63,746 bases of DNA from a virus (lineage: Duplodnaviria; Caudoviricetes). Below, one piece after another: positions 34,680 to 58,708 of the stretch (its first letter is position 1; the number at the start of each line of letters is the position of its first letter). Made by a program: the position numbers and the translations under genes. The stretch spans positions 1 to 63,746 of IMG/VR virus record IMGVR_UViG_3300007734_000746. The stretch is one strand, 5' to 3'. The notes under the pieces were generated by a model. The model searched no databases. It had not been told where the DNA came from and was given only the letters and a program-made list of their open reading frames with translations.

Positions 34680-35053
34680 TTGACCTCCACATCAGGGATG
34701 ATTGCTGACGGTTTGAATACCACGCGATAGTGGTACACACTGGCTGGCTTGGCTTCCAACTGCTCAACAAAATACGTCACGTTGTCGGACAGGCCAAGGA
34801 AGTGCTTCTTGTAGCTATTCGGCCCCACCTTGCAAGTGATGGAAAGTTCCCTGCTTTTGTCCCAGTTGCCCAACGCACACAAGCCCTCGACAGTCAACAT
34901 GTAGTCGCCAGTGATTCCGTTGTAGAACACCACACGGCGTGTGATTTCAAATTGGTCTGCTGCCTTGGACATGTTTTTCGAGGCAATATCTGCATCCGTG
35001 GAACAACCCGCAAGTGCTGCTACGGCAGCGGTAATAGCAATAAATTTTTTCAT
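34676..35053 (-). CDS. Phage lipoprotein
   Basis: Signal peptide with LAGC lipobox; AD..S.N.SKAAD.FE..RR.VFYNGIT..KKHFLGLSDNVTYFVEQ. Confidence 0.8.
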   Translation of the reverse strand: MKKFIAITAAVAALAGCSTDADIASKNMSKAADQFEITRRVVFYNGITGDYMLTVEGLCALGNWDKSRELSITCKVGPNSYKKHFLGLSDNVTYFVEQLEAKPASVYHYRVVFKPSAIIPDVEVK

Positions 35054-40584: not shown

Positions 40585-40781
40585 TGACCGAGCATGAAGA
40601 AAACCTACGCGACTTGGCGGCTATGTTTGCTATGACCGGTTTGATCATCAGGAACAGAGAGAGGGATCAAATTATCCCTACCGCCTTTGCATTTGCCGAC
40701 TACTTCATGGAGGCGCGCAAACCTGAAGAGGGCATTGCGGCCATCAAGAAGCAGCGCAAGAAAAATGTACAGGAATCGTAA
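40584..40781 (+). CDS. Hypothetical protein (LRDLAAMFAM.G)
   Basis: Similar motif to 35050-35295. Confidence 0.6.
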   Translation: MTEHEENLRDLAAMFAMTGLIIRNRERDQIIPTAFAFADYFMEARKPEEGIAAIKKQRKKNVQES

Positions 40782-41052
40782 GTTGCTGGATGCTGCGCGT
40801 GAGTTGCCCTGCCAACATTGTGGTACGCAAAATGGTACGGTGGTGGCGGCTCACAGCAATCAACTGCGGGACGGCAAAGGCCGAGGCCTCAAGGCGCACG
40901 ACTACAGGATTGCATCACTCTGTTACAAGTGCCACTCTGACCTGGACCAGGGCACCCACATGAGCAAGGCCGAAAGAATTGAGCTGTGGGAGGATGCACA
41001 CCGCAAGACTATCGGACTTATGTTTGAACGCGAGATTATTGGGCTGCTTTAA
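40765..41052 (+). CDS. HNH-like Zn nuclease (DUF968/DUF1364-like)
   Basis: MYRNRKLL...PCQHCG..VAAHSN..GKG.G.KA.D..ASLC..CH. Confidence 0.75.
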   Translation: MYRNRKLLDAARELPCQHCGTQNGTVVAAHSNQLRDGKGRGLKAHDYRIASLCYKCHSDLDQGTHMSKAERIELWEDAHRKTIGLMFEREIIGLL

Positions 41053-44000
41053 CCTTATCGTTAAAGTCTTTCATGGCTTTAATCCTCATCTCTTCAATAC
41101 GCCGAGCATTCTTTGTATCGTTTTTATCAAGATACATTTTCTTCTCTTTGTTAAGTTTAGAAATTCTGTTTTCTACGTTATTGGCTTGTTGCCATAACTT
41201 AGATTCAGGATTTGCTTTTTTGTACTCTTCAACAGGCTCTTTGTTTTGTATGCGCTTTTTGATTTCATGCTCATACTCAGCCATTTGAGATATGTTGTCG
41301 TAAAACTTAGCTGAGATGGCAGCCGGTGTTTTAGTTTCCCCGTACAGTTTTCCAACCACTGGGATCTTGTACGCGGGAACTTCTTCTCCCTCGGCTGCGG
41401 CTTTAATAGATCCAACACCCTTAATTACTTCTCTGCCTACGCCGCCAAAGTACTGTCCAGCCAAGTAATCTATTTCATCAGCTGTTGGGCTAACTAATCC
41501 CTTGGTGTGTTTTGTCCCCATTGGAGATGTAATGAAGTTTAAAAACTCAGCTATTCCTTGGCTAATGAATGTAGCTGTAGGACGAGAGCGCTCATATCCA
41601 GGCGTTGGCTGGGTGGCCATATCCTTCTTATAGATCGGACGACCAAACGCATCTTTGTTTGCTGAGATTGCAAATAGTGGATCAAACGCGGTTGGCGCAA
41701 TCATTTGGGTAAAGCTACCAGCACCCAACGGATTAAATGAATCAAGAATTAATGATCCAATGCTTAGAGCTTTATCCCCAAGACCTTGATTGCTCTTAAG
41801 CAGCCCGCCTTTGATAAGCACAGCCTCAGTCAAGATGCGGCCAATTCCTGGGAACACATTGAGTCCTGGGGGCATTGGCAAGATGATGTAGTTGTTTCCT
41901 GCAAATGGGATTGGAATGATCAGGTTCTTGTCCTTCAAAAACTCCGGAGGATCTCCATCATCGTACCCATTTAACGCCAACGCAATTGCTTGAATGACGC
42001 CCAGGGCGATACCGCCAGCAATGATCTTTTTGCCCATTGGCCCGTTTAGGGTTTGTATTAAGCGAGCAGTTCCTTGGACGGATGCATTGATAAAAGCATA
42101 CAAAGCCTGGAAGGTTGGGGAAGCAGCTCCTTTGCGGTTAAAGTTAACGGTCAACTCTTTAGCAATAGACGCAGCCTTTTGTTCACTCAGACCTTTCTCA
42201 AGCGCAACTTTAAACGCCGACAAGCGCACAGCGTTTTCCATTGCATCGTTGTAGTCAGAGAGCCAATCAAAAAGCTTTTGTGTGGCTTTTTTAACATTAC
42301 CCCTGTTGAGCCGCTTCATTTCCTGCTCAACAATATTTACCTTTTCTTTTGGCGCGCCAGTCCTCATGCGCTCAACAAACTTATCAAATGACTCGCTTTG
42401 ACCGCTGAACTGCTTAGCAAATCCAGTGGTGCCTCCGGCAAGTCGCATTTGATCAAACAAATCTATTAAAGCTTGTTCTTCTGGAGATGAGGCTGGCTTT
42501 TTCCTCAAGCTTTTCCAGATAGCAAACATTGCTGGCAGGGTGCCTTTTAAAACTTCTTTTTCTTTCCCGGCAATTTCTGTCGTTGAAAGATTGAAGGCAG
42601 CGCTTTGTACGTCACGGGTCATGTTCCATGCGCCAAACACTGGGTTGAACTGCGTATTGATAGATGCAATCCAACGTGTTACCGCGCCGATATTACCCAA
42701 GACAAAGCCAAGTTGGTCAGAGTCCAGATTCTTCAGCGACATAGCCATGCGCATGGCACGCTCATCTTTAGGATTAAAGATGATGAATCGGTCTTCCCCA
42801 TTGATACGAACAGGGAACACGTTCTTGCTGTTGTATTGCGCTGGGTTAACGTCATAACGCACAAGTCCCGTGGTCTTGTCAATCGACGGGGTTTGCAGCG
42901 GGCGAATAAGGCTTTCTGCATCCTGAATAGTCAAGCCAAGGCTAACCATCTCTTGAATGAGTTTGGCCTTATTCTTAATCGCATTAGGATTAATCGGCAA
43001 CCAGAACTTTGGATTAGGGTTGGTGATGGCCAATGCATACAAAGCCCTGCCAACTTTTGCCTGCTCAGATCTGCGAATTGCTTTCTCGCGCTGCATTGCA
43101 ATGTTGGCCAGGATATCTTTAACTGGTTTAACGGAACCTACCGCACGCTTAGATGCACCGCCTTTTGTTCCTACTCCGCCAACATATCCAGAACCGGTGT
43201 GTACAAAGTCTAGGTCATCACGCTGTAGTGGGACGTAGTGCTTATAAGTTTTGTTCCATTGGTCAATAGTGTCCTGAGTCTCAAGACCACCATCAACCAA
43301 CATCTTCTGCGTTCCATCAATGATGTCATCAATCTTGGCAGCAAAGCGCTCCAGCTTGGCTTTCTCAGCGGCTGGTAAGTTGGACAAGTAATCCTGGGCG
43401 TCAGTTGTTTTAATTCCTGAGCCGGTATCCTGAACATCAGGAGAAAGATTAATCTTGTTAATCTGTTCGTTGCGCTCTTGTGCATGGCGGTTGTGCAAGT
43501 ACGTTTCGAGCGCCTCTACACTTATGCCCTCACGCTTCATTTGCTCAAGCAGCGGACGGAAATCATCTTTCAAGAAATCCAAAATGCGCTCAGCAGAACG
43601 CCCGTGATAAAGAGTTTCTTTTGTATAGGCGTCCAGGCGCTCATCAATCTGGCCAACCTTTTCATTGATCCTCTCAATTACACGCTTGGTGTCTATCTGT
43701 TTATCTGCGCCTTGATAGATAAGTCCATCTGTAAAAGATGGCTCAACCGTATCCCAAAGGGCTGTTGGTGCTGCATTGCCTTTATAGTTTTGGATGGAGA
43801 GATAGTATCCTTCGCCCAACATCTCTCTCGTTACAAACTTGCCGTCAGACTTAGCTAGGCTATCTAGCGCACGGATGATGGAGGCATCAGACTTCAATCC
43901 AAACAGCGACTTGATCTTCTGGCCAAACTCTTTGAGCCAATTCTTCAGACGCGCCAGCAAGCCGCCTTGTACAGCGTCATAGCGGGCTTTAACAATGTCA

Positions 44001-47000
44001 GAACCATTTACAGCCCAGAACTCAGATGGGTTGAAGTACTCATAATTAGCTACTGGAACCATGCCAAGCTTAAGCATTTCCATTGCAAAATCTTCGCTGG
44101 AACCGCGTTTTTGCAGAGCTTCCAGTAAAGACTTTATTTGCTCATAAGTTTTTTCTGCACCCTTGGGAACCTCTATGTTGGCTATATTGCCGTCGCCATA
44201 GTGGGCATCCATGAGTGCAGCAAAGTAAAGCTTTTCATTTGGCGTCTTGGCTGCTTTGGCAGCTTTTGCAAGCTGAGACGCCCAGGCTTTACGAATGGCT
44301 TGACGTATTTTGGTAGGCATCATTCTCTCAAGATGATGCAATATCTCGTGTGTAGCTGTTAAATTAGAGGACGCATTTTTAATAATTGTTGCGATGCGGT
44401 AAAAGGAATCATATTGACCGCCTTGGCCAGCCTGACCTTTTCCAATAATGGATATACCTAAGTCGCTGACAAGATCCTCGTTCTGCCCCATAAACCAGAC
44501 AGCCAGATCACGAGCTTCGCGCGACATATCTCCAGCCATAACAGCTTCATTCAATCTCTTTTGAATGTGCAAGAACCCACGCTTGCGCTCGCTCGGTTCT
44601 TTCTCAAGACGCTGCTCTTCATCAGCGGCAATAGCAGCATCAGCCTCCTCAACAAATTTTTCATCTGTTATGCGGCCATCTTTGCGCATCCTGTTAAGAG
44701 TCTTAATGGTGCGCTTCAAAGAAGTAGAGCGCTTCTCTCTTTCTTCATCGGTGTAGCCTTGAATGTCGTAGAAGGTTGGCTCTTTTGGTTCTTTGGGTTC
44801 TTTCCCTGGAGCCTCTTCTTCAGTCTTAACCTCAAGCTTGGCCAACTCTGTTTCACGGCCAGTTTGCTTGCGTTCAACACCAGGCTTTGGAGCTGGGACT
44901 TGCTTCTCTGTCACGGTTGTCTTGGTGACTGGCTCAACCTTTTGGCGGATGATGTCATCGCTGTACATAGCTTTACCATTGATAAAGTCCATGACGTTTG
45001 CGCCGTTCTCGGGAACGATAAATATCTTGGCGCCATCCATCTGGTTAAGGTGGTTGGTGATTAGGTACTTGAAGGTTTCCTTGTTGACGTTAATACAGCC
45101 AAAGGAATAGCGCGAGTCTTCTGCTCCAGGCTTCTCTAGCGCAGCCAGGCGTTGCTTGGCGTCAGTCTCATGCGTCCATACAGAGTGCATGATGGTGTTG
45201 GAGTACGGGCCGTTGCTTCCCATGTGGGACTTGTCCAGCACAAACACTTTGCCAAAGTCATAGTCGCCAGCGGTATAAGCCTCACCAGCGCTACGCTTAG
45301 CATCACGCAGGCCCAGATCAAACACGCCAGCCGGAGTAATCCTATTGGCTTCAATCTCATTGTCGCCATGCATGTAGTCGCCGATAGCCTTGCCAAACAA
45401 AGTTTTGCTTTGGAGCAATAACGATCCGTCAGGGTTGAATAGGTAAGTGTTACCGCTTCGCTTGTCGGCAACAATAAACAGCTTGTCCTTTTCTTTAAGC
45501 TGCTTTTCCAGGGCCGGGTAGATGACGCCATACGCACGCTTAGCGGCATCAGACATCGACTGCGCTTCTTTCGGCAGGTCTTTTATCACCTCGCTGGTCT
45601 TGATGTCGTACTGGGGAACTGCAATTGTGTACGGCTTGCTGACAAACTGAGGGTTAAATACGATGGCCACAGACAGCACGCCGTTAGCAATCTGCTTGAT
45701 GATTGCGCGGATCTTGCCGTTAACAGCTTTAGCGCCCTGTGTAATGAAGGCAATGACATCCTTGCGTAGGCTGTCCAGGAACTCAGTAGAGTCACGCTTG
45801 GCGCCGTACTGTGACTCAAGGCTCTTCTTCTGGTCTTCGCTTAGCTTGGAGGTCTGGTCAGTCAGCAAGGCGTGCTGCTTCTCTTCGCCTATCTCTGTGA
45901 ATTCACCCTCAATGGTGTATGGCTCATTTGTCAAGCGAGGCGCAGCTGGCTTTTCTGCTGGCCCAAGCACCTCTACCTCTGGCTCACGAACCATAACTTT
46001 GTTGGAGTCTTCTGCAAAGTCAAAGCCAAACTTTTTGTACAGATCTTCCAACTGCTGGCGGTCAAGGCCAAAATTCTTTTCTTTAATGTTTACAAGCGGT
46101 ACCGGCTCAATGTACAGAGTAACTCCATACTGGTCAGCAGCATCAACAATGTTTTGAAGCGCCTCATTGGCTTTGCCTTGGTTGCGCTTGGCCTGGTCCA
46201 CCAATAGAGCATTGATCACCAGATCGGTAGATTCACCTTGGCCGGTTAAGACGGCATTCTTATCCTGGAACAATACAAGCTGGGGTGTAAGAGATACGCG
46301 CACGCCATCTTTCTCAAACGTGCGGTGAGGATCGCCACCCTTGTCAACATAGGTGCGTGGATCTTTAAGTGCCAATACCTCATAGCCGTCATTAAATAGA
46401 ACAGCGGCCATAGGGTAGCGCAGGCTTCGGCCCTCTGGCGTTTCTACTGGCTCAAGCTTAACTCCTTCTTGTTTGCCTATGTACCCAAACTTTTCAGCAT
46501 TTTTTACTGACTCTGCGTCCATTGATAAAGGAATATTTTTAACCCCAGAATCACGCAGATATGCATATCTATGTCGCCCATCTCCAAAAACGATAGCTCC
46601 ATCTTTGTCTACAGAAACATTTGGGGCCTCTATAGATTTTGCATCTTTAATAAATTCTGCAAATTTTTTATACCGGCCTTCTATTCCACCTTCTCCACCT
46701 TCGCCAACATATTGCCATGTTGTTTTGGAAAAGGCTTTATCAAAAGCATCAGTGTTAACTTTAACTAATTGATTTTCTTTTTCCAGCCGGTGCATTGTTA
46801 CTGGAACATCTTTTCCATTAACTTGAATAACATCTTCAAGTTTTGCCGGAGCTTTTTCTTCCTGCTCCTCCTGCTGCCCACCAATGATGTCGCGGGCTAT
46901 ATTAGCAGCCTCTTCTAAGTCACCGTCATAGTACTTGTCTTGGAACAAAGAGCTGTCAATGGCCTCTTCATCAGCTTCTGTAGCGCCCTCAAAAGCTTTA

Positions 47001-50000
47001 GGATCAACGCCATAGTAAGTGCGAGTAAGGCGCTCAGCCGGAGTCATGCTCTCGGCATTGTTAGCCATGAAGAATGCGTAGGCAAAACCTTCAGGCGTCA
47101 GAGAACGGGCGTATTTATTCTTGCCGCTAATCTTGTGGATTTTTGAACCTTCAGTTGGCTCAACTGGAGCCATAGGAAGATCATTTTGAAAGTTACCCCA
47201 CAGCAGGGTTTTCTTTGTGTATGGATCGCCGTAGAAGTTAGGATCAAACGTCAGGTGGGCTGGCGGCAAATTGTTTAGCTTTGCGATTCGCCCAACAGGA
47301 TTTTCCATTGCCCAAATTTTTGGCTGGAGAAATTCCACTGTGCGCAATACTTGTTTTACCAACTCATTGCTTAATTCAGTTTGTCCTTTAGCATCTTTTG
47401 CCGCCCAAAACTGAGCGCCGGATGACGCAAAGTCTGTGCATGGTGGGGCCGCAAGGATGCCCCAAATATTCATATCGCCAAAGCCCTCATTAAGAAGATA
47501 CTCTGCGCTAAAGTCGTTAATATCTTCGCCGGTCTGTATATCAAAAGTCCATACGTTATAGCCAGCCTCACGCCACGGCTTAGACCACTCACCAGAAGCG
47601 TCAAACAGGCTCATAATGGTCCTGTCAAAATTCTTATTGGTCTTACCCTGGCGTGCGGCTTCCGCCTTCCATTCTTCAATCTGAGCCTTGGCCTCTTCAG
47701 GCGCCATCATTTCAGTTGGCTTTGGCTTAGCTGGCTTTTCAGCCGGATGCATTAGCGCGTTATAGCGAGTATCGTAGGGATTTTCTTCTTTTGGAGTTTC
47801 GCTTAAAAGCTTTCCAACAGTATCAGAGTCAGCTTCAAAAGGAACAACCTTAACACCGTCTTCTGTAATGTCTAGCTCTTCCTCAACCTTCTCTTCCTCT
47901 TGAGCAAAGATATCCTTCTGCCCACGCGCAGCCGCGACATCGGCAGCACGATCACTGCCGGTTAAAGTAAATTCACCAACCTCTTTGTCGGCTTTGGCTT
48001 TTTCTTCAGACTCTTTTTTGGCTTTAGCTTCGGCGGCTTCCGCTTCCTCTGCCTTCTTGCGATACTCTTCTTTGGCCCTTAATCCTTCTGGGGTTGGGCG
48101 AGTAAGCGCTTTTCCTTCATCTGGCTCAGTAGATGGAATCTCGCTTTCGGGCTCAACGCTGCGAGCATTGATTTCACTCTGTCTTTTTTCGTCGGCTGCT
48201 TCTTGAAGTTCAAGGTTCTGCTCCTCAATAGTTAGGTAGTCGTTAATTAATTTCTCAGCCTCTTCAACAGAGCCAAAGATTTGCTCAATCTCTACCTGTG
48301 ATTCGTAGGGAATGTAGTTCTGGTTGCGTACTTGATCTTTGATGTACTCTTCCGCCTCCTGGCCGTCAAAGCCTGGAACGTTAGAGCGCATTTGGAACGG
48401 CAGGAAATCATCTAAGTCTCCATCCGAAACCATGTCTGCGATTGACTTGCCACTAGATCCTTTTTTGGCTTGGAGCTTCTTCTGGTAAACCTGTGGGCTC
48501 TTACCAAATAACTCAGCTATATCACTAGAGCCAAGCTTTCCAACCAAAGCAGTCCATAGGCTACCCCCAGGCTTTCCTTTGATTTTGCTAACAGCCTTCT
48601 CACCTTCGCTAACCCTTTGCTCCGCCTCGGTAATTTCCTGCGGCCGTGGAACAGCCTTGCGGATTACTTGTTGGGCTTGGGTAGCAGAGTCGTTGGCGCG
48701 CTTGATGGAAAGATTAAATTTATCTGCATCAGCACGCTTGTATTCGTTTTGAATGGCGTAGTGATCTCGCAAAAGCTTCAATCCATCAGACAATAAATTG
48801 CTGTATTGAGTTTTTAAATTACCCAACCCTAGAGGAAGTTTTGTATCGTTAACTTGATAGCCAAGATTATTAAGGGCTGTAATTACATCCTGTATGGACG
48901 CACTTACATTATCAAAAGCAGTCTTTGCCTCGGGTGAGGCTGTTTTTTGAAATGTATCGTAATACTTTTGCTCATTAGCCTCCAAGAAGTCAGACCACTT
49001 AAAGCCCTCTTCTTTGGCCTCTGCTTTGCCTTGCTTTGCTTGAAACTCTTGCAGCTTTTCTTTGTAAAAAGGAATAGATTCTTTTTTAAACATTCCTCTT
49101 TTAACACTATTGCGCACCGTATCTGCAAAATCTTTTTGCCCAGCAGCCTCTATTTGTTCAGCCAAATCTAAAGCTTCTTGTTGGTCCGGCGTAGGATTGC
49201 TTAAAGTTTTTTCACCAATCTCTCCTATTATGCGATCTCTCTCAGCTTGGATTTTGTCCAACTGATCTTGGCTAATACGCCCTTCCCTGAAAGCTTTCTT
49301 TGCATTAAAGCTAACAGTATTAATGATGGTGTATTGCTCTTCAATAGGGCGGTCTTTAAGATTGCCAAGCGTCAATCTTTCAGCAGGGGCTGCGGGCGCT
49401 TGTTCTCCTTGCGCTTCTGCTTGCTTGGCTTTAGGGGTTTCAATGCCACTTAGGGCTCCTTCAATAGAAACAGGGGTTGGGGTAGTTGGAGCTTGTTCCT
49501 CCACTTGCTTGCGAACAAATGGGCCGGCCTCCGCTACTGTTGGCTGGATTCCGGCGGCTTTAGGCTCTTCAACATTAACAGGTGGTAAAGTTGCGACTCC
49601 AACAGGAGCTTGTCCCAATGCCTCACGCAGCATTGCCTCTGTATCCATAGATTCAGACGGCGCAGCGGTAAGGCCAGCAATACCAGCCGGAGGAGTAATA
49701 GGAGCACCGCCACTTGGAGGGGTTGGAGGCTCATTTGGACGGGCTGTAGGAGGGGTTATTTCTAGACCAGGAACATTAGCTCGGACGTTTGTTCCTTGAC
49801 GGACGCCTGCGTCTGGGCTTAGTGATTGGCGTACTAATTGATCTATCGCTTCTTGATTGACAGTGGCGCCTTTTGCACCCTCTTCTAATGCCTTTGCAAG
49901 CACCTCAGCGCGGGTTTGTTCGCCTGTTTTGGCACCATAAACCCTGGCCCCAGTAGTAACAGCACCGCCACCTAGCGCTCCAGCAGCCTCCGCCGCAGCA

Positions 50001-51226
50001 GCATTCAAAATGTCTTTAAGATTCTTTTCTGTTAAGAATTCTTCCTGTTCTTTTTCACGAACTTGGCCGGCAATCTGTGTGGCTTGTTGAGCGCCGCCGG
50101 TAAGGAATTCTTCAGCCATTTGCTTGGGAACTTCTTTGACGCCAGCTTTAAAGGCTTGCTTCTTAGTCTCTCCAGCAACAACTTCTTTAAGCCCGCGCTT
50201 AGCCAATGCAGCATCAGGACCAAGTACGCTGTCCAACATGCCATTGATGATGCCAACAGCCAGGGTGGTATCGCCAGTCTTTGTAATGTAATCAATGACA
50301 GTATCAGCCCGCTTGTTCCGAGGCATGTCTTTGATTTGATCTTTCAATGCGCTAAGGCGGTCATCCACAGCCTGGGCCGTGCCCATGCCAGCCCCAAGTA
50401 AAGCAACTCCGCCAGGCCCGGTGGTTACCGCTGCCAGCATGATAGGAGCCATTTGAACTGCGCCAGAGCCTACGTTGTAAGCGAGCCAGTTGGCAAAGTC
50501 TTTGACGTTTTCTACGTCTGTTAGGTCAGTTGTACGTCCTTTGTACTTAACTGAGTCTTTTTGGTATTGGTCTAAAGTCTCCAAAGAGGCAGAGACAAAA
50601 TCCTTGCGCCTGCCAATCTCATCGACTGTGCGGTTACGAATCTTCTCGCGCATAGCTGGATCAGCGCCCAAATACGCACGCGCTTGCGATGTAGAAATAT
50701 CCAATCCGCGCAACTGGTCTGGGTTGGTAATCTCACCAGTCTCAATCTTGTTAAAGAGGTCAAGCCTTTTTTGCACAGTGCCAAGCGCGCCAACATCTTT
50801 GTAGATGCCAGCTTGCTCCCACATGGATGGCAGGGCAATTTTTGCAGCGCTTTCCACGCCTTTGCCAAGCTCTTCCATAGGGCGAGCTTTCGATGGCGGA
50901 CGAGGTGCTTTGGGCGCAGCTGCCACAGGCTCGGCGCCTGGAGCGCCAATAGCGCCCATTACTTGATCCTCTGGGGAAAATATGGGCTCAGCTTGCGGCG
51001 CAGTAAATGGTTTGGCTAGAAGGCTTCTTATGCCAGCACTTGATGGAGTGGCTGTAGCGTAGGCTTGCTCTTGAGGAGACATAGCCGTATTGCCTGCAAA
51101 ATCAGGAACCTTTGGCGCAGGAGTAGGCGGCTGCTTTTCAAGGTAACTTAGGATTTTTGCCTTAGCTTCAGCCGGGTCCTCAGTGGTAATGTCGTACTGC
51201 TGACCCTTGTACTCATAAATGGGCAT
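41036..51226 (-). CDS. Giant polyvalent ejection-type protein (C5-MTase, ParB, GNAT, L,D-transpeptidase, zincin, LPD38)
   Basis: 3396 aa; last gene of the ejection cluster; motifs PPC/ENP, GDGRHR, RNQGKA, H..SFGCIN, HEILH and an LPD38-like C-terminus. Confidence 0.85.
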   Translation of the reverse strand: MPIYEYKGQQYDITTEDPAEAKAKILSYLEKQPPTPAPKVPDFAGNTAMSPQEQAYATATPSSAGIRSLLAKPFTAPQAEPIFSPEDQVMGAIGAPGAEPVAAAPKAPRPPSKARPMEELGKGVESAAKIALPSMWEQAGIYKDVGALGTVQKRLDLFNKIETGEITNPDQLRGLDISTSQARAYLGADPAMREKIRNRTVDEIGRRKDFVSASLETLDQYQKDSVKYKGRTTDLTDVENVKDFANWLAYNVGSGAVQMAPIMLAAVTTGPGGVALLGAGMGTAQAVDDRLSALKDQIKDMPRNKRADTVIDYITKTGDTTLAVGIINGMLDSVLGPDAALAKRGLKEVVAGETKKQAFKAGVKEVPKQMAEEFLTGGAQQATQIAGQVREKEQEEFLTEKNLKDILNAAAAEAAGALGGGAVTTGARVYGAKTGEQTRAEVLAKALEEGAKGATVNQEAIDQLVRQSLSPDAGVRQGTNVRANVPGLEITPPTARPNEPPTPPSGGAPITPPAGIAGLTAAPSESMDTEAMLREALGQAPVGVATLPPVNVEEPKAAGIQPTVAEAGPFVRKQVEEQAPTTPTPVSIEGALSGIETPKAKQAEAQGEQAPAAPAERLTLGNLKDRPIEEQYTIINTVSFNAKKAFREGRISQDQLDKIQAERDRIIGEIGEKTLSNPTPDQQEALDLAEQIEAAGQKDFADTVRNSVKRGMFKKESIPFYKEKLQEFQAKQGKAEAKEEGFKWSDFLEANEQKYYDTFQKTASPEAKTAFDNVSASIQDVITALNNLGYQVNDTKLPLGLGNLKTQYSNLLSDGLKLLRDHYAIQNEYKRADADKFNLSIKRANDSATQAQQVIRKAVPRPQEITEAEQRVSEGEKAVSKIKGKPGGSLWTALVGKLGSSDIAELFGKSPQVYQKKLQAKKGSSGKSIADMVSDGDLDDFLPFQMRSNVPGFDGQEAEEYIKDQVRNQNYIPYESQVEIEQIFGSVEEAEKLINDYLTIEEQNLELQEAADEKRQSEINARSVEPESEIPSTEPDEGKALTRPTPEGLRAKEEYRKKAEEAEAAEAKAKKESEEKAKADKEVGEFTLTGSDRAADVAAARGQKDIFAQEEEKVEEELDITEDGVKVVPFEADSDTVGKLLSETPKEENPYDTRYNALMHPAEKPAKPKPTEMMAPEEAKAQIEEWKAEAARQGKTNKNFDRTIMSLFDASGEWSKPWREAGYNVWTFDIQTGEDINDFSAEYLLNEGFGDMNIWGILAAPPCTDFASSGAQFWAAKDAKGQTELSNELVKQVLRTVEFLQPKIWAMENPVGRIAKLNNLPPAHLTFDPNFYGDPYTKKTLLWGNFQNDLPMAPVEPTEGSKIHKISGKNKYARSLTPEGFAYAFFMANNAESMTPAERLTRTYYGVDPKAFEGATEADEEAIDSSLFQDKYYDGDLEEAANIARDIIGGQQEEQEEKAPAKLEDVIQVNGKDVPVTMHRLEKENQLVKVNTDAFDKAFSKTTWQYVGEGGEGGIEGRYKKFAEFIKDAKSIEAPNVSVDKDGAIVFGDGRHRYAYLRDSGVKNIPLSMDAESVKNAEKFGYIGKQEGVKLEPVETPEGRSLRYPMAAVLFNDGYEVLALKDPRTYVDKGGDPHRTFEKDGVRVSLTPQLVLFQDKNAVLTGQGESTDLVINALLVDQAKRNQGKANEALQNIVDAADQYGVTLYIEPVPLVNIKEKNFGLDRQQLEDLYKKFGFDFAEDSNKVMVREPEVEVLGPAEKPAAPRLTNEPYTIEGEFTEIGEEKQHALLTDQTSKLSEDQKKSLESQYGAKRDSTEFLDSLRKDVIAFITQGAKAVNGKIRAIIKQIANGVLSVAIVFNPQFVSKPYTIAVPQYDIKTSEVIKDLPKEAQSMSDAAKRAYGVIYPALEKQLKEKDKLFIVADKRSGNTYLFNPDGSLLLQSKTLFGKAIGDYMHGDNEIEANRITPAGVFDLGLRDAKRSAGEAYTAGDYDFGKVFVLDKSHMGSNGPYSNTIMHSVWTHETDAKQRLAALEKPGAEDSRYSFGCINVNKETFKYLITNHLNQMDGAKIFIVPENGANVMDFINGKAMYSDDIIRQKVEPVTKTTVTEKQVPAPKPGVERKQTGRETELAKLEVKTEEEAPGKEPKEPKEPTFYDIQGYTDEEREKRSTSLKRTIKTLNRMRKDGRITDEKFVEEADAAIAADEEQRLEKEPSERKRGFLHIQKRLNEAVMAGDMSREARDLAVWFMGQNEDLVSDLGISIIGKGQAGQGGQYDSFYRIATIIKNASSNLTATHEILHHLERMMPTKIRQAIRKAWASQLAKAAKAAKTPNEKLYFAALMDAHYGDGNIANIEVPKGAEKTYEQIKSLLEALQKRGSSEDFAMEMLKLGMVPVANYEYFNPSEFWAVNGSDIVKARYDAVQGGLLARLKNWLKEFGQKIKSLFGLKSDASIIRALDSLAKSDGKFVTREMLGEGYYLSIQNYKGNAAPTALWDTVEPSFTDGLIYQGADKQIDTKRVIERINEKVGQIDERLDAYTKETLYHGRSAERILDFLKDDFRPLLEQMKREGISVEALETYLHNRHAQERNEQINKINLSPDVQDTGSGIKTTDAQDYLSNLPAAEKAKLERFAAKIDDIIDGTQKMLVDGGLETQDTIDQWNKTYKHYVPLQRDDLDFVHTGSGYVGGVGTKGGASKRAVGSVKPVKDILANIAMQREKAIRRSEQAKVGRALYALAITNPNPKFWLPINPNAIKNKAKLIQEMVSLGLTIQDAESLIRPLQTPSIDKTTGLVRYDVNPAQYNSKNVFPVRINGEDRFIIFNPKDERAMRMAMSLKNLDSDQLGFVLGNIGAVTRWIASINTQFNPVFGAWNMTRDVQSAAFNLSTTEIAGKEKEVLKGTLPAMFAIWKSLRKKPASSPEEQALIDLFDQMRLAGGTTGFAKQFSGQSESFDKFVERMRTGAPKEKVNIVEQEMKRLNRGNVKKATQKLFDWLSDYNDAMENAVRLSAFKVALEKGLSEQKAASIAKELTVNFNRKGAASPTFQALYAFINASVQGTARLIQTLNGPMGKKIIAGGIALGVIQAIALALNGYDDGDPPEFLKDKNLIIPIPFAGNNYIILPMPPGLNVFPGIGRILTEAVLIKGGLLKSNQGLGDKALSIGSLILDSFNPLGAGSFTQMIAPTAFDPLFAISANKDAFGRPIYKKDMATQPTPGYERSRPTATFISQGIAEFLNFITSPMGTKHTKGLVSPTADEIDYLAGQYFGGVGREVIKGVGSIKAAAEGEEVPAYKIPVVGKLYGETKTPAAISAKFYDNISQMAEYEHEIKKRIQNKEPVEEYKKANPESKLWQQANNVENRISKLNKEKKMYLDKNDTKNARRIEEMRIKAMKDFNDKVKAAQ
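49571..49592. promoter_or_regulatory. 22-bp palindromic site (intragenic, one mismatch)
   Basis: AACATTAAC-AGGT-GGTAAAGTT. Confidence 0.55.
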
Positions 51227-51234
51227 GGCAAGCC

Positions 51235-52845
51235 TTAATCAAGTTTAATTACTTTTGGCGCAGAAGACCCGCCTCCAAAGAAGGTTCCCATCTTACTAAA
51301 AAATCCTGGCTCTTCTTTTGGCTTATCTTGGAAAGACTCGTAGGTTGGCAATGCACTTGGCTGCGGAACAGGTAGTCCAGCTGCCTTGTAAGCATCCGCA
51401 CGATACTTGTCTCTAATAGCCCGGTAATACTTGCCAACTGGGGAATCCAACTCTTCAGCAGAAAGGCCCGCAATTCTTTTTGTCACCTCTGAAAAATCTG
51501 ATCCCGGCTTGCTTAAGTTTGCCTCAACTCTTCCAATTACTTTTTGCTCAGCGGTGGGCCGAGATTCTCTAAGAGCCTCTAATTGTTCTTGACGAAGAGC
51601 TAGCTCAGAATTTTTTGTAGCTTCTTGATACTTTAATCTCTGACGCTCAATATCTCTTTGGCTTGCATGATTGGCAATCATCTCTTTCAAAGTAAGAGCC
51701 GCATTATTTTCAAGCTGCTTGTAATGATCAAGAGTGCCTTTTGTCTGCATTTCTGTATTAGCAGCGGTAAGTGCATCTTTAGAGGCGGTAACTGCAAGAG
51801 ATTCGCGTTTTGCAATTCTGTCGGCAAGCGCTTTTTGATAGGCAATAGCATCAGCAACACGCCCTTCAATTTGCGCTTTTGCATAGGCCTGGCGCAGCGT
51901 TTCAATGTCAGCATCCAACTTGCCAACTTCAATCATTTGCTGACGCTCAAGAGCCTGTTGAGCCTGCTGTCGTTTAATGTCTTCAGCGGTGTAATTGCTG
52001 TATGACTTACCAAACCCAGCAAATGCAGCGCCAAGGCCTTTTTGGCCACGAGTAGCTTCACCAGCTGCAATTAATGCATCACCAAGCGCGCCTAGTCCCA
52101 TGCGCTTTTGGTTTTCTTGGAATTGCGCTTTACTGGCTTTATTTTGCTCATCAAGCTTGGCAGACAATGCAGACAACGCAGAGCCTGGGATTACGCTCAC
52201 CAGCCTAGCCAACTCTGGATTTTTTTCCAATATTGCCTGACGGATAGCTTCTGGATCTTTAGGCATAGGCTCATCAGTATCACCCCTAATAGCCTTGGCC
52301 AAAGCAGCAGTTGCTGGGCCTGTCAAAGATGCAACTCCGGCTTGCGGCATTGCAGACGCAGGAGGACCTTGCATTTCCATGTTAGCGCGGGCTTCAGCTT
52401 CACCAGCAGTTTCTTCATCTGCCTCACCACCTCCACCAAACGCAACAATACCTCCAGGCGCGTAATGAAACATATCATCACGGACCGGAAGCTCGGCCAC
52501 TCCGCCTCCAGCCATAGCTGGCATTTCTTGAGGAGCGCCCTGAGGCATCCCTTGCGGCATACCTTGTGCAAGCTGCGCTATTCCTTGTGGTGCTTGTTGA
52601 GGCATTTGAGCTACACCCTGAGGCATACCCTGAGGCATTGCACGAGGAGCGCCTACTTCAGCCTCTAGCTTATCTTTAACAGACTGCGTTGGCATTTCTG
52701 TTTTTCGCTTTTCTGCTCTGCTGCGGCGCTCAAGCTCACCCAAAGCCATATAAGGAGGTACCTCTGGGTTCTGGGCATTTGCGTAGGATTTAACTACGTC
52801 AGTAGGAAGATCTTTAAGATGTTCCTGAATTTGTATCAGATTCAT
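51235..52845 (-). CDS. Putative ejection (internal virion) protein
   Basis: 536 aa helical, Q/A-rich, PQGM repeats, AGGG..GGIVAF motif. Confidence 0.6.
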   Translation of the reverse strand: MNLIQIQEHLKDLPTDVVKSYANAQNPEVPPYMALGELERRSRAEKRKTEMPTQSVKDKLEAEVGAPRAMPQGMPQGVAQMPQQAPQGIAQLAQGMPQGMPQGAPQEMPAMAGGGVAELPVRDDMFHYAPGGIVAFGGGGEADEETAGEAEARANMEMQGPPASAMPQAGVASLTGPATAALAKAIRGDTDEPMPKDPEAIRQAILEKNPELARLVSVIPGSALSALSAKLDEQNKASKAQFQENQKRMGLGALGDALIAAGEATRGQKGLGAAFAGFGKSYSNYTAEDIKRQQAQQALERQQMIEVGKLDADIETLRQAYAKAQIEGRVADAIAYQKALADRIAKRESLAVTASKDALTAANTEMQTKGTLDHYKQLENNAALTLKEMIANHASQRDIERQRLKYQEATKNSELALRQEQLEALRESRPTAEQKVIGRVEANLSKPGSDFSEVTKRIAGLSAEELDSPVGKYYRAIRDKYRADAYKAAGLPVPQPSALPTYESFQDKPKEEPGFFSKMGTFFGGGSSAPKVIKLD

Positions 52846-52856
52846 TTTCTTTATCC

Positions 52857-53744
52857 TTATGGACCTAAATCAATACCCAGTTTCTGTAAGAGTGAATTAA
52901 TATCTTTAAAGCCTAAAGCTTCTGCAACTTTGGTTCCGCCACCAAGCATAGCCAAAATATTACCTATATCGCTCATTTGGGCTGGAGTATTTGAAACAGA
53001 AGAAACGGGTAAACCTGTTATCGCATTGCGCATGTAATCCACTTGCTGGTAAGGGAACTGGCGTTGTTTTTCAAATTCAGCCAAATCAGCAGCAACGCCC
53101 TCAGACTCAATGTTGCGCTGAGTTGCACCTGTGCTTGACATCAAATCAGCTAGGGTTTTTGCCTGATTTTGTTCAGTATTAAACTGCCCCATTGCTCTGT
53201 CATAAGCATTAGCGTAGCCCGCACCAACAGTTTTGTTTTGCTCTTGCATCAAGTTACGCTGTGTTTCAGCATCCATAATGGCTTGCCTGCTTCCTCCAAA
53301 CGCACCAGCATTTGCCATCTTCCCGGCGTTTTGCATTTGCGTTATTTGAGATTGCCTGCGCAGTTCTTCTAGTTGCGGGTTTAGAACGGACTGCAAATAT
53401 GGATTCATGTACTGAGCAGCTAATCCTGGCGTACCAGTTGCGTCGCCAACAAGCTTTCCATCATCACCGTAAGTTGGAAGTTTATAAGCGTCAGCAGAAC
53501 TAAAACTTTTACCCAGATTGCTTGGGAAGTTAAGTGACTCTATGCCTTTGAATACTTTATTCTGTATATCAGACGCTCCTGCGGTAAGAGGTCCTTTATA
53601 CGTTTCATAAGGAGTACCAGCTAAAGCTTTGGCTTTACCCAAATAATCCGTAATGTAAGGAGCGGCCCAGTCTGATAAACCTTGAGCGTTTGTGCCGCCA
53701 GCGGTTAAGTTGTTGTCAAGTGTAGAAGGAGAATTGATAGGCAT
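52857..53744 (-). CDS. Putative ejection/pilot protein
   Basis: QYMNPY.Q.V..GAFGGSR motif. Confidence 0.65.
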   Translation of the reverse strand: MPINSPSTLDNNLTAGGTNAQGLSDWAAPYITDYLGKAKALAGTPYETYKGPLTAGASDIQNKVFKGIESLNFPSNLGKSFSSADAYKLPTYGDDGKLVGDATGTPGLAAQYMNPYLQSVLNPQLEELRRQSQITQMQNAGKMANAGAFGGSRQAIMDAETQRNLMQEQNKTVGAGYANAYDRAMGQFNTEQNQAKTLADLMSSTGATQRNIESEGVAADLAEFEKQRQFPYQQVDYMRNAITGLPVSSVSNTPAQMSDIGNILAMLGGGTKVAEALGFKDINSLLQKLGIDLGP

Positions 53745-53753
53745 GATTATTCC

Positions 53754-55610
53754 TTATGCTGGCAAGTACTTTGCTGCCTTTGTATTGGCTGCAACGTTTT
53801 TGGTTTTACGGCGGACTTTTTGGACTCGGTCCATCATCTCATACAAACGCTTAGCGCCTGCATCTGTAGAACCGTTTCCAAGCTCAGAAACAATTCTTGC
53901 TGGTATAACAAACTCGCCGTTAGCTAAACGGGCAGGTTGTTTTTTACCAATTATGGCAGGAATTGAGTCAGAAACACCATCCCCTGGTCCTTGAAGCAAC
54001 CTTCCGCCATCGGAGTAACTTCCTAAGCCGCCAAGCGACATTAGGCCGCCGCCAGCAGCTTTTGGGGTATAGGTGGTGGGAGAGAAGTAGGTAACCCCAC
54101 CCTGCCCAGGCCGGTAAGGCGTATTTGGGTTTATCCCTTTTTTATTTACATCGTATGGAAGTTGAGTCCTTGTGGCTGTAAGCTCTGGGATGGTGGCCGT
54201 GCTGGCCGCTGGCGCGTTGCTTCCCTTGTTCATCATGGACATTAAAGCCAGCAAACCTAATGTTCCGCCAAAGCCTATTCCTGATCCTGTGCTAGATTTA
54301 CCAGTTAACGCACCTTTTGCCTTATCCAGTAAATCTGTTATACCACTCTTTGAGCCAGCAACAGTAGTTCCAGCAGCGGCAGCTAGCTCTGCTGGAGTTA
54401 ACATGCCTTCAGCCGCCGCTTTTGCGCCAGCAGAACCAGGGCCAAGTCCAGAAGCAATAGCTTCTTTTAAAGATGTTGATTTAATAACATCTGTTCCACC
54501 TGGACCGTTACCTGCCCCGGCTTTTGCAGATCCTCCAGCATCAATGTAATCTTGCGCCCCTTGTTTGGCCATTTCTACCAAAGCTGGAGTAGCGCCTTCT
54601 GTTACTACACCCGAAGCAGCGGCCAATTCAGCAGGTGTTAAAGCTCCGGTAGCGGCACCAGTAGCACCAGCAGATCCCGGAGTAAATGTGCCAGAAGCTA
54701 CCATTTCGTTTAAAGAAGTAGTAGCGCCTGGCAAAGAAGCTACTTCTGAAGCCGGTAATGCTGCGAGTTCAGTACCCAATGATCCAATCCCACCAGCAGC
54801 AGCCAATTCTGCTCCCGTCAATGCGCCTGATGCAGCCCCTAGGGCACCAGCAGATCCCGGAGTAAATGTACCAGCGGCAATCATTTCCGGGGAAAATGCA
54901 GCCGCAGTACCCAACGAGCCAATCCCAGTTGCCGCACCTGGCAATGACGCCAATTGAGCGCCAGTCAAAGCTCCTTCTGCTGCGCCTAATGTGCCAGCTC
55001 CAGCGGCAGTAGCACCTGCACCACCAGCCAACATTGGCAAAAGATAATTTGCACCAAAAGCAGTTAACGCTAATGGCGCAAGGTCTTTGATTAGAGTGCC
55101 TAAATTTTGCCTGTCAACAATAGACGTTTGTTTTCCGCTAGTATCAAAATTAACGTACTGGCTTTTCCCGTTATCGTAACGGTAACCGATTGGTGCGCCG
55201 TATTCTTGCGTAACTGTTCCTCGACCATGAGCTGTTTCTCCAACTGCATAAACAGGCTCAAGTTCTCCGCCTACTTGTTTTTCAATTGCAAGAATTTCTG
55301 GGGGTTTTGGAACCGATATTTTTCCAGCTCTAACAGTTTCTGGATCTGGCTCGTACCCAATAATTTTATTGTTTCCTTGTCTATCAATCGAATAAATTGG
55401 TTTTCCTAAATCTTTAACTTTAGGAACTTTTGCAGAGATGCCAGCGCCCACTGATTCAGCGTTTATAGCAGAAGCAACGTTGGCAGGTAAATCAGCAATT
55501 CCGCCACTAATAGAAGTAGGCGTTAATTGTTTTTCTCTAATAAATTGTTTGCCGTCACTTTTTTCATCTATAAGATCTAAATCATTTTGATCAATGTATT
55601 TTTTTGTCAT
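53754..55610 (-). CDS. Putative ejection protein, Gly/Ala-rich
   Basis: GTFTPGSAGA repeats; C-terminal GPGDGVSDSIPA..ARLA.GEFVIPA. Confidence 0.6.
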   Translation of the reverse strand: MTKKYIDQNDLDLIDEKSDGKQFIREKQLTPTSISGGIADLPANVASAINAESVGAGISAKVPKVKDLGKPIYSIDRQGNNKIIGYEPDPETVRAGKISVPKPPEILAIEKQVGGELEPVYAVGETAHGRGTVTQEYGAPIGYRYDNGKSQYVNFDTSGKQTSIVDRQNLGTLIKDLAPLALTAFGANYLLPMLAGGAGATAAGAGTLGAAEGALTGAQLASLPGAATGIGSLGTAAAFSPEMIAAGTFTPGSAGALGAASGALTGAELAAAGGIGSLGTELAALPASEVASLPGATTSLNEMVASGTFTPGSAGATGAATGALTPAELAAASGVVTEGATPALVEMAKQGAQDYIDAGGSAKAGAGNGPGGTDVIKSTSLKEAIASGLGPGSAGAKAAAEGMLTPAELAAAAGTTVAGSKSGITDLLDKAKGALTGKSSTGSGIGFGGTLGLLALMSMMNKGSNAPAASTATIPELTATRTQLPYDVNKKGINPNTPYRPGQGGVTYFSPTTYTPKAAGGGLMSLGGLGSYSDGGRLLQGPGDGVSDSIPAIIGKKQPARLANGEFVIPARIVSELGNGSTDAGAKRLYEMMDRVQKVRRKTKNVAANTKAAKYLPA

Positions 55611-55622
55611 AATTAAAATTCC

Positions 55623-56282
55623 TTAAGGTAAGGCTGATACAAATGTCATTGTGGCTACCACAGACTGTGTTGCCGGTCGTGTTGGGCCGGTTGAAGCTGG
55701 GTAATATTGAATGGTCACAGAATTAAGCGTGGTTGACCAGTAAATTTCTATGTAGTCGTTAGCCGCCATACTGACATAGTAGTTCCACCCAATAATCTCA
55801 TGGGCTTCTTCACCGGCTGACGCGCTTTTTCTTGCTGGAATAGAAACAAAGCCCGTTGAACCTGTAATGTCTGTTCCATTTTGGCGCAACCAAATGCTGA
55901 TGTCTTGAATGGCGTTATCTGTGTTTTGGAACTGGGCACTAAATTGCAGGTTGTATATACCGGCATTAGCTACCGTTATCTTGGAAGAGTTAATTGACAC
56001 GCCATTGGCAAAATCCGTTGTGTTCAACGTCATCAGCGTGGCTGTATTTGCCGTAGTGCTTTGATCTTGATCGCTGGAAAAAGCGCCATATGGAAACCGT
56101 ACCCCAGCAATACCGCCCGAAGTTGATAACTGCCCAAGAATATTGTCAAGCTGGTTAAAGTACAGGCGCAGGACGTTATTCAACTGGTTGATGTAGTTCT
56201 CGTCGTACTGCTTGGTAGCCGCAGGCAAGCGCGGCGCAACCACCCGGTTAAGCTCGTACTGGGAAGTAACAACGTAGCTCAT
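55623..56282 (-). CDS. Tail-associated protein with beta-sandwich (C1q-like) C-terminus
   Basis: LRLYFNQLD coil, then YGAF..G.YNLQFSAQ. Confidence 0.6.
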   Translation of the reverse strand: MSYVVTSQYELNRVVAPRLPAATKQYDENYINQLNNVLRLYFNQLDNILGQLSTSGGIAGVRFPYGAFSSDQDQSTTANTATLMTLNTTDFANGVSINSSKITVANAGIYNLQFSAQFQNTDNAIQDISIWLRQNGTDITGSTGFVSIPARKSASAGEEAHEIIGWNYYVSMAANDYIEIYWSTTLNSVTIQYYPASTGPTRPATQSVVATMTFVSALP

Positions 56283-58369: not shown

Positions 58370-58708
58370 TTACACATTTCTTTCAAAATGCGGGCAATCG
58401 ACCAGCGACTTGAAGTTGCCGCCCCATCGGTTTTTGGGGTTTAATGACTCCCAGTACGCGCCCAAGAGGGCCAAAACCCCCTTATCCCAAATTATCTTCC
58501 CGTCTTTAAAGAAGTTCAAGTCAATGGCGCACCTTTTAAGGTGGATGGACTGCATGGTTTTGGAACGCCCGGTTTTGAAGTAGATGGCTTGCTGCTCAGG
58601 CGTGCGGGCTAGTTCCCCACCAGTGACCACAAAACCCTGCTCTGTGGCGTATTGGATGAGTTTGCACATGTCCAGCAAGAATGCTGCCTGCTCTTGATTT
58701 AGGCTCAT
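58370..58708 (-). CDS. Endolysin, M15 (L-Ala-D-Glu) peptidase
   Basis: RT.EQQ, S.HLKR.AIDL, RWGGNF...D.PHFE motifs. Confidence 0.9.
   Translation of the reverse strand: MSLNQEQAAFLLDMCKLIQYATEQGFVVTGGELARTPEQQAIYFKTGRSKTMQSIHLKRCAIDLNFFKDGKIIWDKGVLALLGAYWESLNPKNRWGGNFKSLVDCPHFERNV

Follow-up and report, generated by a model that had tools for sequence, protein, structure and literature searches.

The 63,746-bp virus record IMGVR_UViG_3300007734_000746, which was analyzed over its whole length and is called the window in the following, carries one giant gene whose 3,396-residue product is, judged from its sequence, a phage-type LPD38 polyvalent protein of the class described by Iyer 2017, a common class that is represented here with a rare set of cargo domains. 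This protein is probably packed in the capsid and ejected at infection, with its domains taking the roles outlined below; packaging, ejection, topology and processing as well as every enzymatic activity are what we infer from the evidence that follows. An earlier note on the same DNA had arrived at an injected polyvalent protein with a possibly undescribed combination of enzyme-like domains. This proposal is partly supported: it was right on the class and on the probable delivery and too optimistic on novelty, and the activities it named have the same standing as ours.

The gene is a single open frame at 41036..51226 of the minus strand, as anticipated by the earlier note, with an ATG start, 3,396 codons plus the stop and no internal stop; on the opposite strand of the same interval no comparable frame was found. 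It occupies about one sixth of the phage genome and encodes a product of ~375 kDa. Residue numbers were converted to nucleotide (nt) positions according to aa i = (51226-nt)/3+1. The protein combines LPD38 with at least two unrelated effector-type domains and is encoded among the virion/late genes of a phage, as is characteristic of the class. Accordingly, the assignment to a polyvalent, ejection-type class holds on the basis of LPD38, of the position of the gene at the end of the virion gene block and of a C-terminal module homologous to two virion-proven proteins. As listed in Table 1, the positions of all six domains agree with those given earlier. Their identities fared differently: LPD38 and the C5 cytosine methyltransferase are firm calls, the YkuD-like (L,D-transpeptidase) and GNAT domains are supported through relatives, and the ParB/Srx and zincin calls reach the motif level only.

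The C-terminal module, which is the frame common to the class, matched phrog_14770 (E 3e-167) and phrog_616 (E 2e-81). The call of LPD38 within it is confirmed at the level of the profile match, and about 600 conserved residues (aa 2495-3090), which were absent from the earlier note, precede this domain. At their end lies a strongly hydrophobic, Gly-rich helix, in which G3071, G3072, G3076 and Q3079 are invariant in 54 sequences and which corresponds to helix 571-591 of the module model. A search of 50,697 phage records returned the module in 342, with 80% or more of the query covered in 318 of these; among the 342 are Vibrio, Stx-converting Escherichia, Ralstonia, Burkholderia and Erwinia phages. 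Relatives of it are encoded in 332 IMG/VR stretches. An AlphaFold2 model of the module (54-sequence alignment, predicted local distance difference test score (pLDDT) 71, predicted template modelling score 0.65) matched 77 predicted viral structures of BFVD at E<=1e-3 with template modelling (TM) scores up to 0.89, including one of Ralstonia phage Alix. Furthermore, it resembles the C-terminal piece of the polyvalent protein of E. coli phage PTXU04 (BFVD E 1.7e-21, TMq 0.65). For PTXU04 gp25, knock-down is reported to cause a large drop in plating efficiency (PMC11879866). Foldseek rows for glutamate transporters were rejected as noise (TM 0.07).

The giant protein is probably virion-borne, because its module is homologous to JC1 gp69 and phi24B gp47, both of which are virion-proven, and because of its place in the virion gene block. 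Gp69 of Burkholderia phage JC1 ('DarB-like antirestriction protein', 4,515 aa) corresponds to Bcep22 gp75, shares the module with 26% identity over 869 aa (E 2e-55), likewise contains LPD38 and is the product of the largest gene of the morphogenesis module. Bcep22 gp75 itself was reportedly found to be virion-borne by Gill et al. in 2011. For JC1 gp69, Table 6 of the phage description gives 51 unique peptides from CsCl-purified virions with a score second to that of the capsid protein (PMC9144972). According to the same source, JC1 gp69 contains a helicase-type (HepA) region and was named after P1 DarB, whereas the window protein gave no hit for a helicase or an N6-adenine methylase. Membership in the P1 DarB family was rejected, as neither domain was found by Pfam and PHROG scans of the whole protein; a DarA domain was not found either, which leaves the comparison with P1 DarA/DarB drawn in the earlier note as an analogy only. 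An N4-type virion RNA polymerase (the ~3,500-aa class) was rejected as well, no RNA polymerase family being among the Pfam, PHROG and NCBIfam matches.

The second homologue, phi24B gp47 (= vb_24B_48, ~2,800 aa, from an Stx-converting phage), shares the C-terminal module with 29% identity over 886 aa (E 1e-89, blastp). Like the window protein it carries an HE-I-[IL]-H-H motif (aa 1564) upstream of the module and 2 Cys, and its gene is likewise a giant one in the late block of a ~60-kb podovirus. It is reported to be abundant by proteomics, to be missing from the cryo-electron microscopy map and is proposed to be an ejection protein (bioRxiv 10.64898/2026.04.10.717836). Its cargo differs, consisting of LPD5, LPD1 and MuF-C (bioRxiv 10.64898/2026.04.10.717836), and the hosts are unrelated; blastp of the window methyltransferase, ParB, YkuD and HExxH segments in vb_24B_48 gave E values of at least 0.08, and the GNAT segment gave none at E<=1e-3. 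A relative of the window protein (P0245, 2,811 aa) was tried as phi24B gp47 and rejected, as both are only 32-37% identical.

The best named matches of the module are found in Methanosarcina virus MetMV (MK170447, 3,002 aa) and in Bacillus phage Dartukuta (gp57, 4,203 aa, 'putative methyltransferase'), with 40% and 38% identity over ~900 aa, respectively, both proteins being encoded by the giant last gene of the structural block. Their middle regions are unrelated to that of the window protein, except that the GNAT segment weakly matches Dartukuta (29% over 86 aa, E 8e-9). The recorded hosts of these two viruses are an archaeon and a monoderm (Bacillus), which means either that one frame has been recorded across a surprisingly broad range of hosts or that a recorded host needs checking.

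Among the cargo domains, the C5 cytosine methyltransferase-like one is the firmest. It matched phrog_757 'DNA methyltransferase' (E 3.8e-40, 8-229 of 247 profile positions) and Pfam DNA_methylase (PF00145; 25.5 bits vs a cut-off of 22, positions 48-112 of 324, i.e. the motif IV-VI part). The motifs SLFDxxGEW, PPCTDFASSG, ENPVG and R.LTPEGFAYAF are kept in all seven aligned sequences, with the predicted catalytic Cys1263 (nt 47438-47440) residing in the PPC motif. The call is confirmed at the level of motifs and profiles for a compact form of the enzyme, which lacks a recognisable target-recognition part. A search of the domain profile against the PDB returned GCN4 coiled-coil artefacts only.

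The YkuD-like domain is matched by Pfam YkuD (PF03734) with E 2.6e-4 and 22.0 bits over positions 3-137 of 146, and 22 of its 35 aligned relatives reach E<=0.01 (best 1.1e-5). H2014 is nearly invariant, and S2041, G2043, C2044, I2045 and N2046, which form the S-x-G-C-I-N signature, are invariant. The conserved block around the domain begins at aa 1770 and takes in the hydrophobic helix upstream of the core. On these grounds the assignment appears well supported. With cellular YkuD-fold enzymes the domain shares the Pfam span and the His ... S-x-G-C-I-N signature; it differs from them in the longer His-to-Cys spacing (30 residues), in the sub-cut-off score and in being part of a 3,396-aa chain that has no evident signal peptide. 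Neither single-sequence nor profile searches returned stand-alone relatives, only fragments of giant proteins, and the domain may represent a possibly new clade that is confined to giant ejection proteins. In the main text of Iyer 2017 (PMC5512222) the strings 'ykud' and 'transpeptidase' both occur 0 times, and the peptidoglycan domains named there are lysozyme, SpoIID-like, DD-peptidase and zeta-kinase domains, in place of which the window protein has YkuD; the supplementary tables of that paper may list YkuD or C5-methylase architectures. In the literature searched, transpeptidase was not found together with polyvalent protein, and going by titles and abstracts, none of the papers on YkuD, bacteriophage and virion dealt with ejection proteins.

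The distribution of cysteine supports both of these domains. The giant protein contains 2 Cys in 3,396 residues, namely C1263 of the methyltransferase and C2044 of the YkuD-like domain, both being predicted nucleophiles. In comparison, 22 other genes of the phage encode 38 Cys in 8,669 residues (0.44%). The same depletion was observed for 220 giant relatives, drawn from the searches with the middle region (aa 1190-2500) and with the HExxH profile, which contain 196 Cys in 635,647 residues (0.031%). According to counts by regular expression, which are hence approximate, 99 of these 196 belong to the SxGC motif of YkuD and 45 to the PC motif of the methyltransferase; 8 directly adjoin the PC motif and 44 are elsewhere. 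JC1 gp69 and Dartukuta gp57 contain no Cys at all. The retention of Cys at the nucleophile positions of a Cys-purged family is the strongest evidence here that both domains work as enzymes, and it indicates that the predicted catalytic residues of the giant protein are under selection. The near-absence of Cys elsewhere would fit an unfolded passage through the tail into the oxidising periplasm.

For the GNAT domain, the window sequence itself scores under the cut-offs of the acetyltransferase models (E 0.056 and 0.09; 14.3 and 13.5 bits). Five relatives which are 60-67% identical over aa 1601-1770 score 22.5-25.0 with Acetyltransf_1 (cut-off 20.7) and near or above the cut-off with Acetyltransf_7, in each case at the aligned place. 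Moreover, all nine sequences retain the motif V-D-x-x-x-R-x-x-G-x-A, and 12 of 17 weak matches from a PDB profile search of the segment are GNAT-fold acetyltransferases or acetyltransferase domains, 10 of the 12 aligning on the motif-A region (profile positions ~60-107). Through its relatives, the putative GNAT domain is therefore supported.

The neighbouring segment at aa ~1465-1585 is a probable ParB/Srx domain, as suggested by a GDGRHRY box that is invariant in 4 of 4 aligned sequences and by the Pfam family PFIN (Osa-type ParB/Srx), which was matched under its cut-off (E 0.002, or 1.1e-4 per genome; 19 bits vs 27). Protein-atlas leads for the segment were ParB_N, PFIN and Parb-CE at 0.88-0.89. 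In an hhalign comparison with a ParB-like protein of the same phage, the box fell on the DGxHR box at E 0.02 and a probability of only 2%, and a search of the segment profile against the PDB found no ParB chain. The said ParB-like protein is encoded separately in the replication block (25729-26544, minus strand; phrog_1033, E 1.8e-14).

The last of the six domains was called a zincin in the earlier note. In all 26 aligned sequences, down to 27% identity, H2293, E2294, H2297 and E2300 of the HEILHHLE motif are invariant together with S2401, E2402 and W2404; the latter belong to an invariant SEFWAVN at aa 2401-2407, and the stretch between SEFWAVN and HEILHHLE varies in length. In the AlphaFold model of the domain, HExxH and E2402 reside in the predicted helices 89-103 and 201-213. 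The metallopeptidases of polyvalent proteins are described by Iyer 2017 (main text, PMC5512222) as an HExxH helix and a Glu on a second helix with variable inserts between them, with mention of one phage clade that has an acidic residue three positions past the motif. At the level of residues and predicted helices, the HExxH domain fits this description.

Family libraries do not contain the domain. A Pfam scan of the 26 aligned members yielded no peptidase family, with at most three members sharing any family and all matches at E>=0.0075, and for 15 further HExxH-bearing proteins no domain was found over the region. The profile search against the PDB returned nothing relevant, the Foldseek comparison of the model with the PDB nothing at E<=1e-3, and VIA-align a best Z of 5.0 on the N-terminal helix pair, with no zincin standing out and the putative metal-dependent hydrolase 3dl1 at Z 4.0 on rank 29 only. 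LPD23 (0.95) and LPD1 (0.91), which were protein-atlas leads, were unconfirmed by Pfam in the window or in the 26 relatives. We therefore regard the domain as a candidate metallopeptidase that is absent from the family libraries; it is called at the motif level and is the weakest of the six calls. Modelling of single segments, which the earlier note had suggested, gave no zincin match for this domain; for the C-terminal module it gave matches to predicted viral structures and to nothing solved.

The HExxH domain is nevertheless widespread: among 1.84 billion representatives its profile matched 740 clusters (50% identity) at E<=1e-3, 537 of them at E<=1e-30. Nearly all of the 150 clusters listed are giant proteins, typically with ~900-1,200 residues after the HExxH domain, as would be the case if the C-terminal module directly follows it. 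In the phi24B, JC1 and Dartukuta proteins, HExxH motifs lie ~150-340 residues upstream of the module. Several relatives are matched by the profile in two stretches. In the aforementioned P0245, which carries LPD5, LPD1, ART-PolyVal and LPD38, the listed one of two HExxH stretches, at 1505-1638, is located between LPD1 and ART-PolyVal (1762-1913), and the ART domain may sit within the variable stretch of the HExxH domain. This suggests that cargo is inserted into the variable loop.

Table 1 Features of the giant protein and of the surrounding phage genome (positions in the window; the last column gives the number of relatives carrying the segment among the 120 listed)
Feature	Residues	Position	Strand	Basis or remark	Relatives (of 120)
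N-terminal region	1-480	49787..51226	-	no Pfam/NCBIfam family	19
Hydrophobic stretch	259-281	50384-50452	-	hydropathy peak 1.55	
Middle helical region	620-1010	48197..49369	-	no family match	54
Compact C5 cytosine methyltransferase-like domain	1195-1400	47027..47644	-	phrog_757, Pfam DNA_methylase, motifs	45
ParB/Srx-like domain (probable)	~1465-1585	46472..46834	-	GDGRHRY motif, sub-threshold PFIN	16
GNAT acetyltransferase-like domain	1601-1770	45917..46426	-	relatives, motif, weak own score	64
Conserved hydrophobic helix just upstream of YkuD core	1839-1859	45650..45712	-	hydropathy 1.61	
YkuD (L,D-transpeptidase fold)-like domain	1917-2058	45053..45478	-	Pfam, relatives, motif; His2014, Cys2044	97
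HExxH domain (candidate zincin)	2200-2490	43757..44629	-	invariant residues; not in Pfam	117
HEILHHLE motif		44327-44350	-	H2293, E2294, H2297, E2300	
C-terminal module, frame common to the class	2495-3396	41039..43744	-	PHROGs, fold, database spread	98
Strongly hydrophobic Gly-rich helix, predicted membrane segment	3064-3088	41963..42037	-	hydropathy peak 2.05	
LPD38 domain	3093-3291	41354..41950	-	PF18857, E 3e-34, 119.2 bits vs cut-off 27	
Two SU10-type adaptor proteins		2984-3688, 5060-5992	-	PHROG/Pfam scans	
Major head protein		8926-9837	-	PHROG/Pfam scans	
Portal		12672-15083	-	PHROG/Pfam scans	
Terminase large subunit		15092-16591	-	PHROG/Pfam scans	
HNH endonuclease gene		40687-41052	+	phrog_131, E 1.8e-25; convergent with giant gene	
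Virion structural protein, 693 aa		56279-58360	-	PHROG/Pfam scans	
Holin-like and M15-peptidase endolysin-like genes		58370-59295	-	PHROG/Pfam scans	
Tail-spike-like protein		59971-62253	-	PHROG/Pfam scans	

The remainder of the protein offers few leads. Over the first ~1,190 residues, a part on which the earlier note is silent, no Pfam, NCBIfam or PHROG family was found. Pro/Glu/Lys-rich linkers, which the earlier note had seen between the domains, are indeed present as blocks at aa 1021-1080, 1141-1200 and 2101-2160. A signal peptide-like N-terminus is not evident in the sequence. A phmmer search of the whole protein against the PDB gave chance-level rows only (E>=0.63), and a DNA-level search of the gene against the 50,697 phage records gave no match.

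Relatives were collected with aa 1190-2500 as the query; 8,000 candidates were scored, of which 433, giant proteins, reached E<=1e-3. For 120 listed of these 433, the presence of eight segments was mapped by blastp with at least 60% coverage (Table 1); this set is biased, as it was gathered with the middle of the window protein itself. The full eight-part layout was observed in 2 of the 120 (P0002 and P0003), and P0004 is short of the N-terminal segment only. In other relatives the same region holds other cargo, namely ART-PolyVal, DUF6884, SAP, DUF5710, LPD39, kinase, pyrophosphatase and SLT domains as well as helicases of the Snf2 or Strawberry-notch type. P0003 is 85-97% identical to the window protein over the first seven segments and 48% identical in the C-terminal module. 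Alternative cargo at the same region and identity jumps within one protein show that cassettes are exchanged by recombination. As to the novelty claimed in the earlier note, the exact layout is rare and YkuD does not occur in the main text of Iyer 2017, but the architecture as a class is common, with the 342 phage records, 332 IMG/VR stretches and 740 clusters given above.

The genomic surroundings were annotated by a PHROG scan of 40 open reading frames and a Pfam scan of 17. The record is rated complete and has direct terminal repeats; its source is a short-tailed phage (podovirus). Reading across the terminal repeat, the giant gene closes the late (virion) block and lies on the same strand as the other genes of this block, and the end of the convergent HNH gene overlaps its stop by 17 bases. 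The portal shares 39-45% identity with its counterparts in Pelagibacter phages HTVC027P and HTVC023P, Synechococcus phage MinM2, Planktothrix phages and Roseobacter phage CRP-901, a similarity that puts the virus, as far as portal sequences tell, in an aquatic podovirus lineage with genomes of ~52-65 kb. The hosts of the nearest cultured portal relatives (31-45% identity) are Pelagibacter, Synechococcus, Planktothrix, Roseobacter and Caulobacter, i.e. diderm, aquatic bacteria. Since the portal relatives infect diderm bacteria, a periplasm with peptidoglycan must be crossed.

Four genes just upstream of the giant gene (51235-56282, minus strand; 536, 295, 618 and 219 aa) have no PHROG or Pfam match, contain 0 Cys in 1,668 residues and show synteny in many IMG/VR relatives; their products may be additional virion proteins, ejected or internal. 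Elsewhere in the genome, an RtcB-type RNA ligase (phrog_1075, E 8e-150) is encoded beside a match to a recombination directionality factor (phrog_478, E 7e-53) at 33489-35053 of the minus strand. By repairing RNA, such a gene may help a podovirus against host defences that cleave tRNA. A search for tRNA genes in the 63,746-bp record found none.

According to the mechanism that we propose, the ~375-kDa protein would be packed inside the capsid and would exit via the portal and the short tail ahead of or together with the DNA. The C-terminal module, comprising the Gly-rich membrane helix and LPD38, would be the frame that is recognised for packaging and would help to bridge or to insert into the envelope. 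In the periplasm, the YkuD-like domain with the hydrophobic helix just upstream of it would act on the peptide stems of peptidoglycan, as a hydrolytic L,D-carboxypeptidase, endopeptidase or amidase rather than by cross-linking. Hydrolytic members of the YkuD fold are known (Csd6, Pgp2 and DpaA/LdtF), which favours cutting of L,D bonds over cross-linking. The cytoplasmic cargo, i.e. the C5 methyltransferase, the ParB/Srx-like nucleoside triphosphatase (NTPase) or nickase and the GNAT domain, would act before phage gene expression, either shielding the DNA that enters or modifying proteins of the host. Finally, the HExxH domain beside the frame may cut the chain into working pieces. In line with such a delivery, podoviruses generally need ejected proteins to span the envelope, as stated in PMC12002296, and the main text of Iyer 2017 (PMC5512222) describes phage-type polyvalent proteins with, like the window protein, many effector-type domains per chain and a proposed delivery with the DNA. 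MPTase-PolyVal, ddrB-ParB and other class-specific Pfam models gave no hit in the window protein.

A more specific and tentative version of this proposal, which we would rate as possible rather than likely, holds that the YkuD-like domain is a new virion-delivered wall enzyme whose lone Cys attacks L,D bonds of the stems and thereby opens or staples the wall, the Cys purge marking the unfolded passage. In the opening variant, 3-3 cross-links or the lipoprotein tether may be opened around the ejection site; in the stapling variant, the ejected conduit may be joined covalently to the wall by transpeptidation.

Several observations weigh against the proposed delivery and domain roles. The evidence for a virion location comes by homology only, at 26-29% identity and from phages of distant hosts. 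The module model matches no solved ejection protein or channel: Foldseek found nothing in the PDB at E<=1e-3 (best 0.017), for VIA-align the highest Z was 7.7 and involved just a terminal helical hairpin, solved ejection proteins such as those of cyanophage A4 or T7 were absent from the structure searches with the module, and the module profile found nothing in the PDB. The role as a conduit is therefore conjecture. Clear membrane-helix hydropathy is present in one segment only (2.05), the other two being borderline (1.55 and 1.61). The methyltransferase covers 65 of 324 Pfam positions in a domain of ~206 aa with no recognisable target-recognition part. The window score of the YkuD-like domain lies under the Pfam cut-off of 23.4, its module profile found no YkuD chain in the PDB (only short NHL-repeat look-alikes), and a looser genome-wide pass with PF03734, which is less sensitive than the direct hmmscan, found no candidate. 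The HExxH model (AlphaFold2, pLDDT 69) is all-helical where confident, without the beta-sheet of zincins, and drops to a pLDDT of <50 just before the HExxH helix, where the sheet of a zincin would lie.

Three other explanations were considered. The giant protein could be packaged and stay in the particle, or serve in assembly only, as a core or scaffold inside the particle that keeps the DNA organised; it would then be the phage's own DNA, during packaging and not in the next host, on which the methyltransferase and the ParB-like domain act. This would be in keeping with the abundance of phi24B gp47 in virions and its invisibility in the map (bioRxiv 10.64898/2026.04.10.717836), with the statements in the main text of Iyer 2017 (PMC5512222) that processing of P1 DdrB precedes packaging and that the head is a possible site of action of MPTase domains, and with the co-transcription of the giant gene with head and tail genes. 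However, a peptidoglycan-directed YkuD domain and a membrane helix would be useless inside a capsid, the near-total loss of Cys fits an unfolded passage via a narrow channel into the oxidising periplasm, and the general need of podoviruses for ejected proteins across the envelope (PMC12002296) argues for an exit from the particle. We consider this explanation unlikely.

Rated slightly lower is the assumption that the enzyme-like domains of the middle are decayed relics or spacers whose motifs are remnants, the conserved frame being the one part that counts. In the window sequence, YkuD, GNAT and ParB, which make up three of the five calls of enzymes, are under the curated cut-offs, and cargo is freely lost and swapped among the relatives. 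Yet the catalytic motifs are invariant down to 27-45% identity, 144 of the 196 remaining Cys of the 220 relatives occupy the two predicted nucleophile positions, and among these relatives the regular expression found 0 with the YkuD motif and a replaced Cys.

Least probable of all is a late cytoplasmic multi-enzyme for anti-defence or host takeover that merely adjoins the structural genes and is not associated with the virion: the virion evidence does come from homologues and not from the window phage, and the methyltransferase, GNAT and ParB domains do have cytoplasmic substrates, but two homologues (JC1 gp69 and phi24B gp47) were found in purified virions, a protein made late would miss the time at which incoming DNA has to be protected, YkuD enzymes have to reach peptidoglycan and the sequence shows no obvious signal peptide-like N-terminus, and the synteny with the Cys-free upstream genes is kept in IMG/VR relatives. 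Packaging in the capsid followed by ejection at infection remains the probable fate of the giant protein.

With respect to what was known before, the class (Iyer 2017), the location in the virion (JC1, phi24B) and the essentiality (PTXU04) had been described. Possibly new are the YkuD clade that is confined to the class, the HExxH family outside the libraries and the cysteine pattern. Giant LPD38 proteins fill 15-20% of many podovirus genomes. The window protein opens no new class of system; it is a clean and complete example from an uncultured aquatic lineage, and it offers handles on the role of such proteins once outside the capsid, in the form of two single-Cys enzyme domains, a YkuD-type putative wall enzyme that replaces the usual lysozyme and a widespread HExxH domain outside the family libraries.

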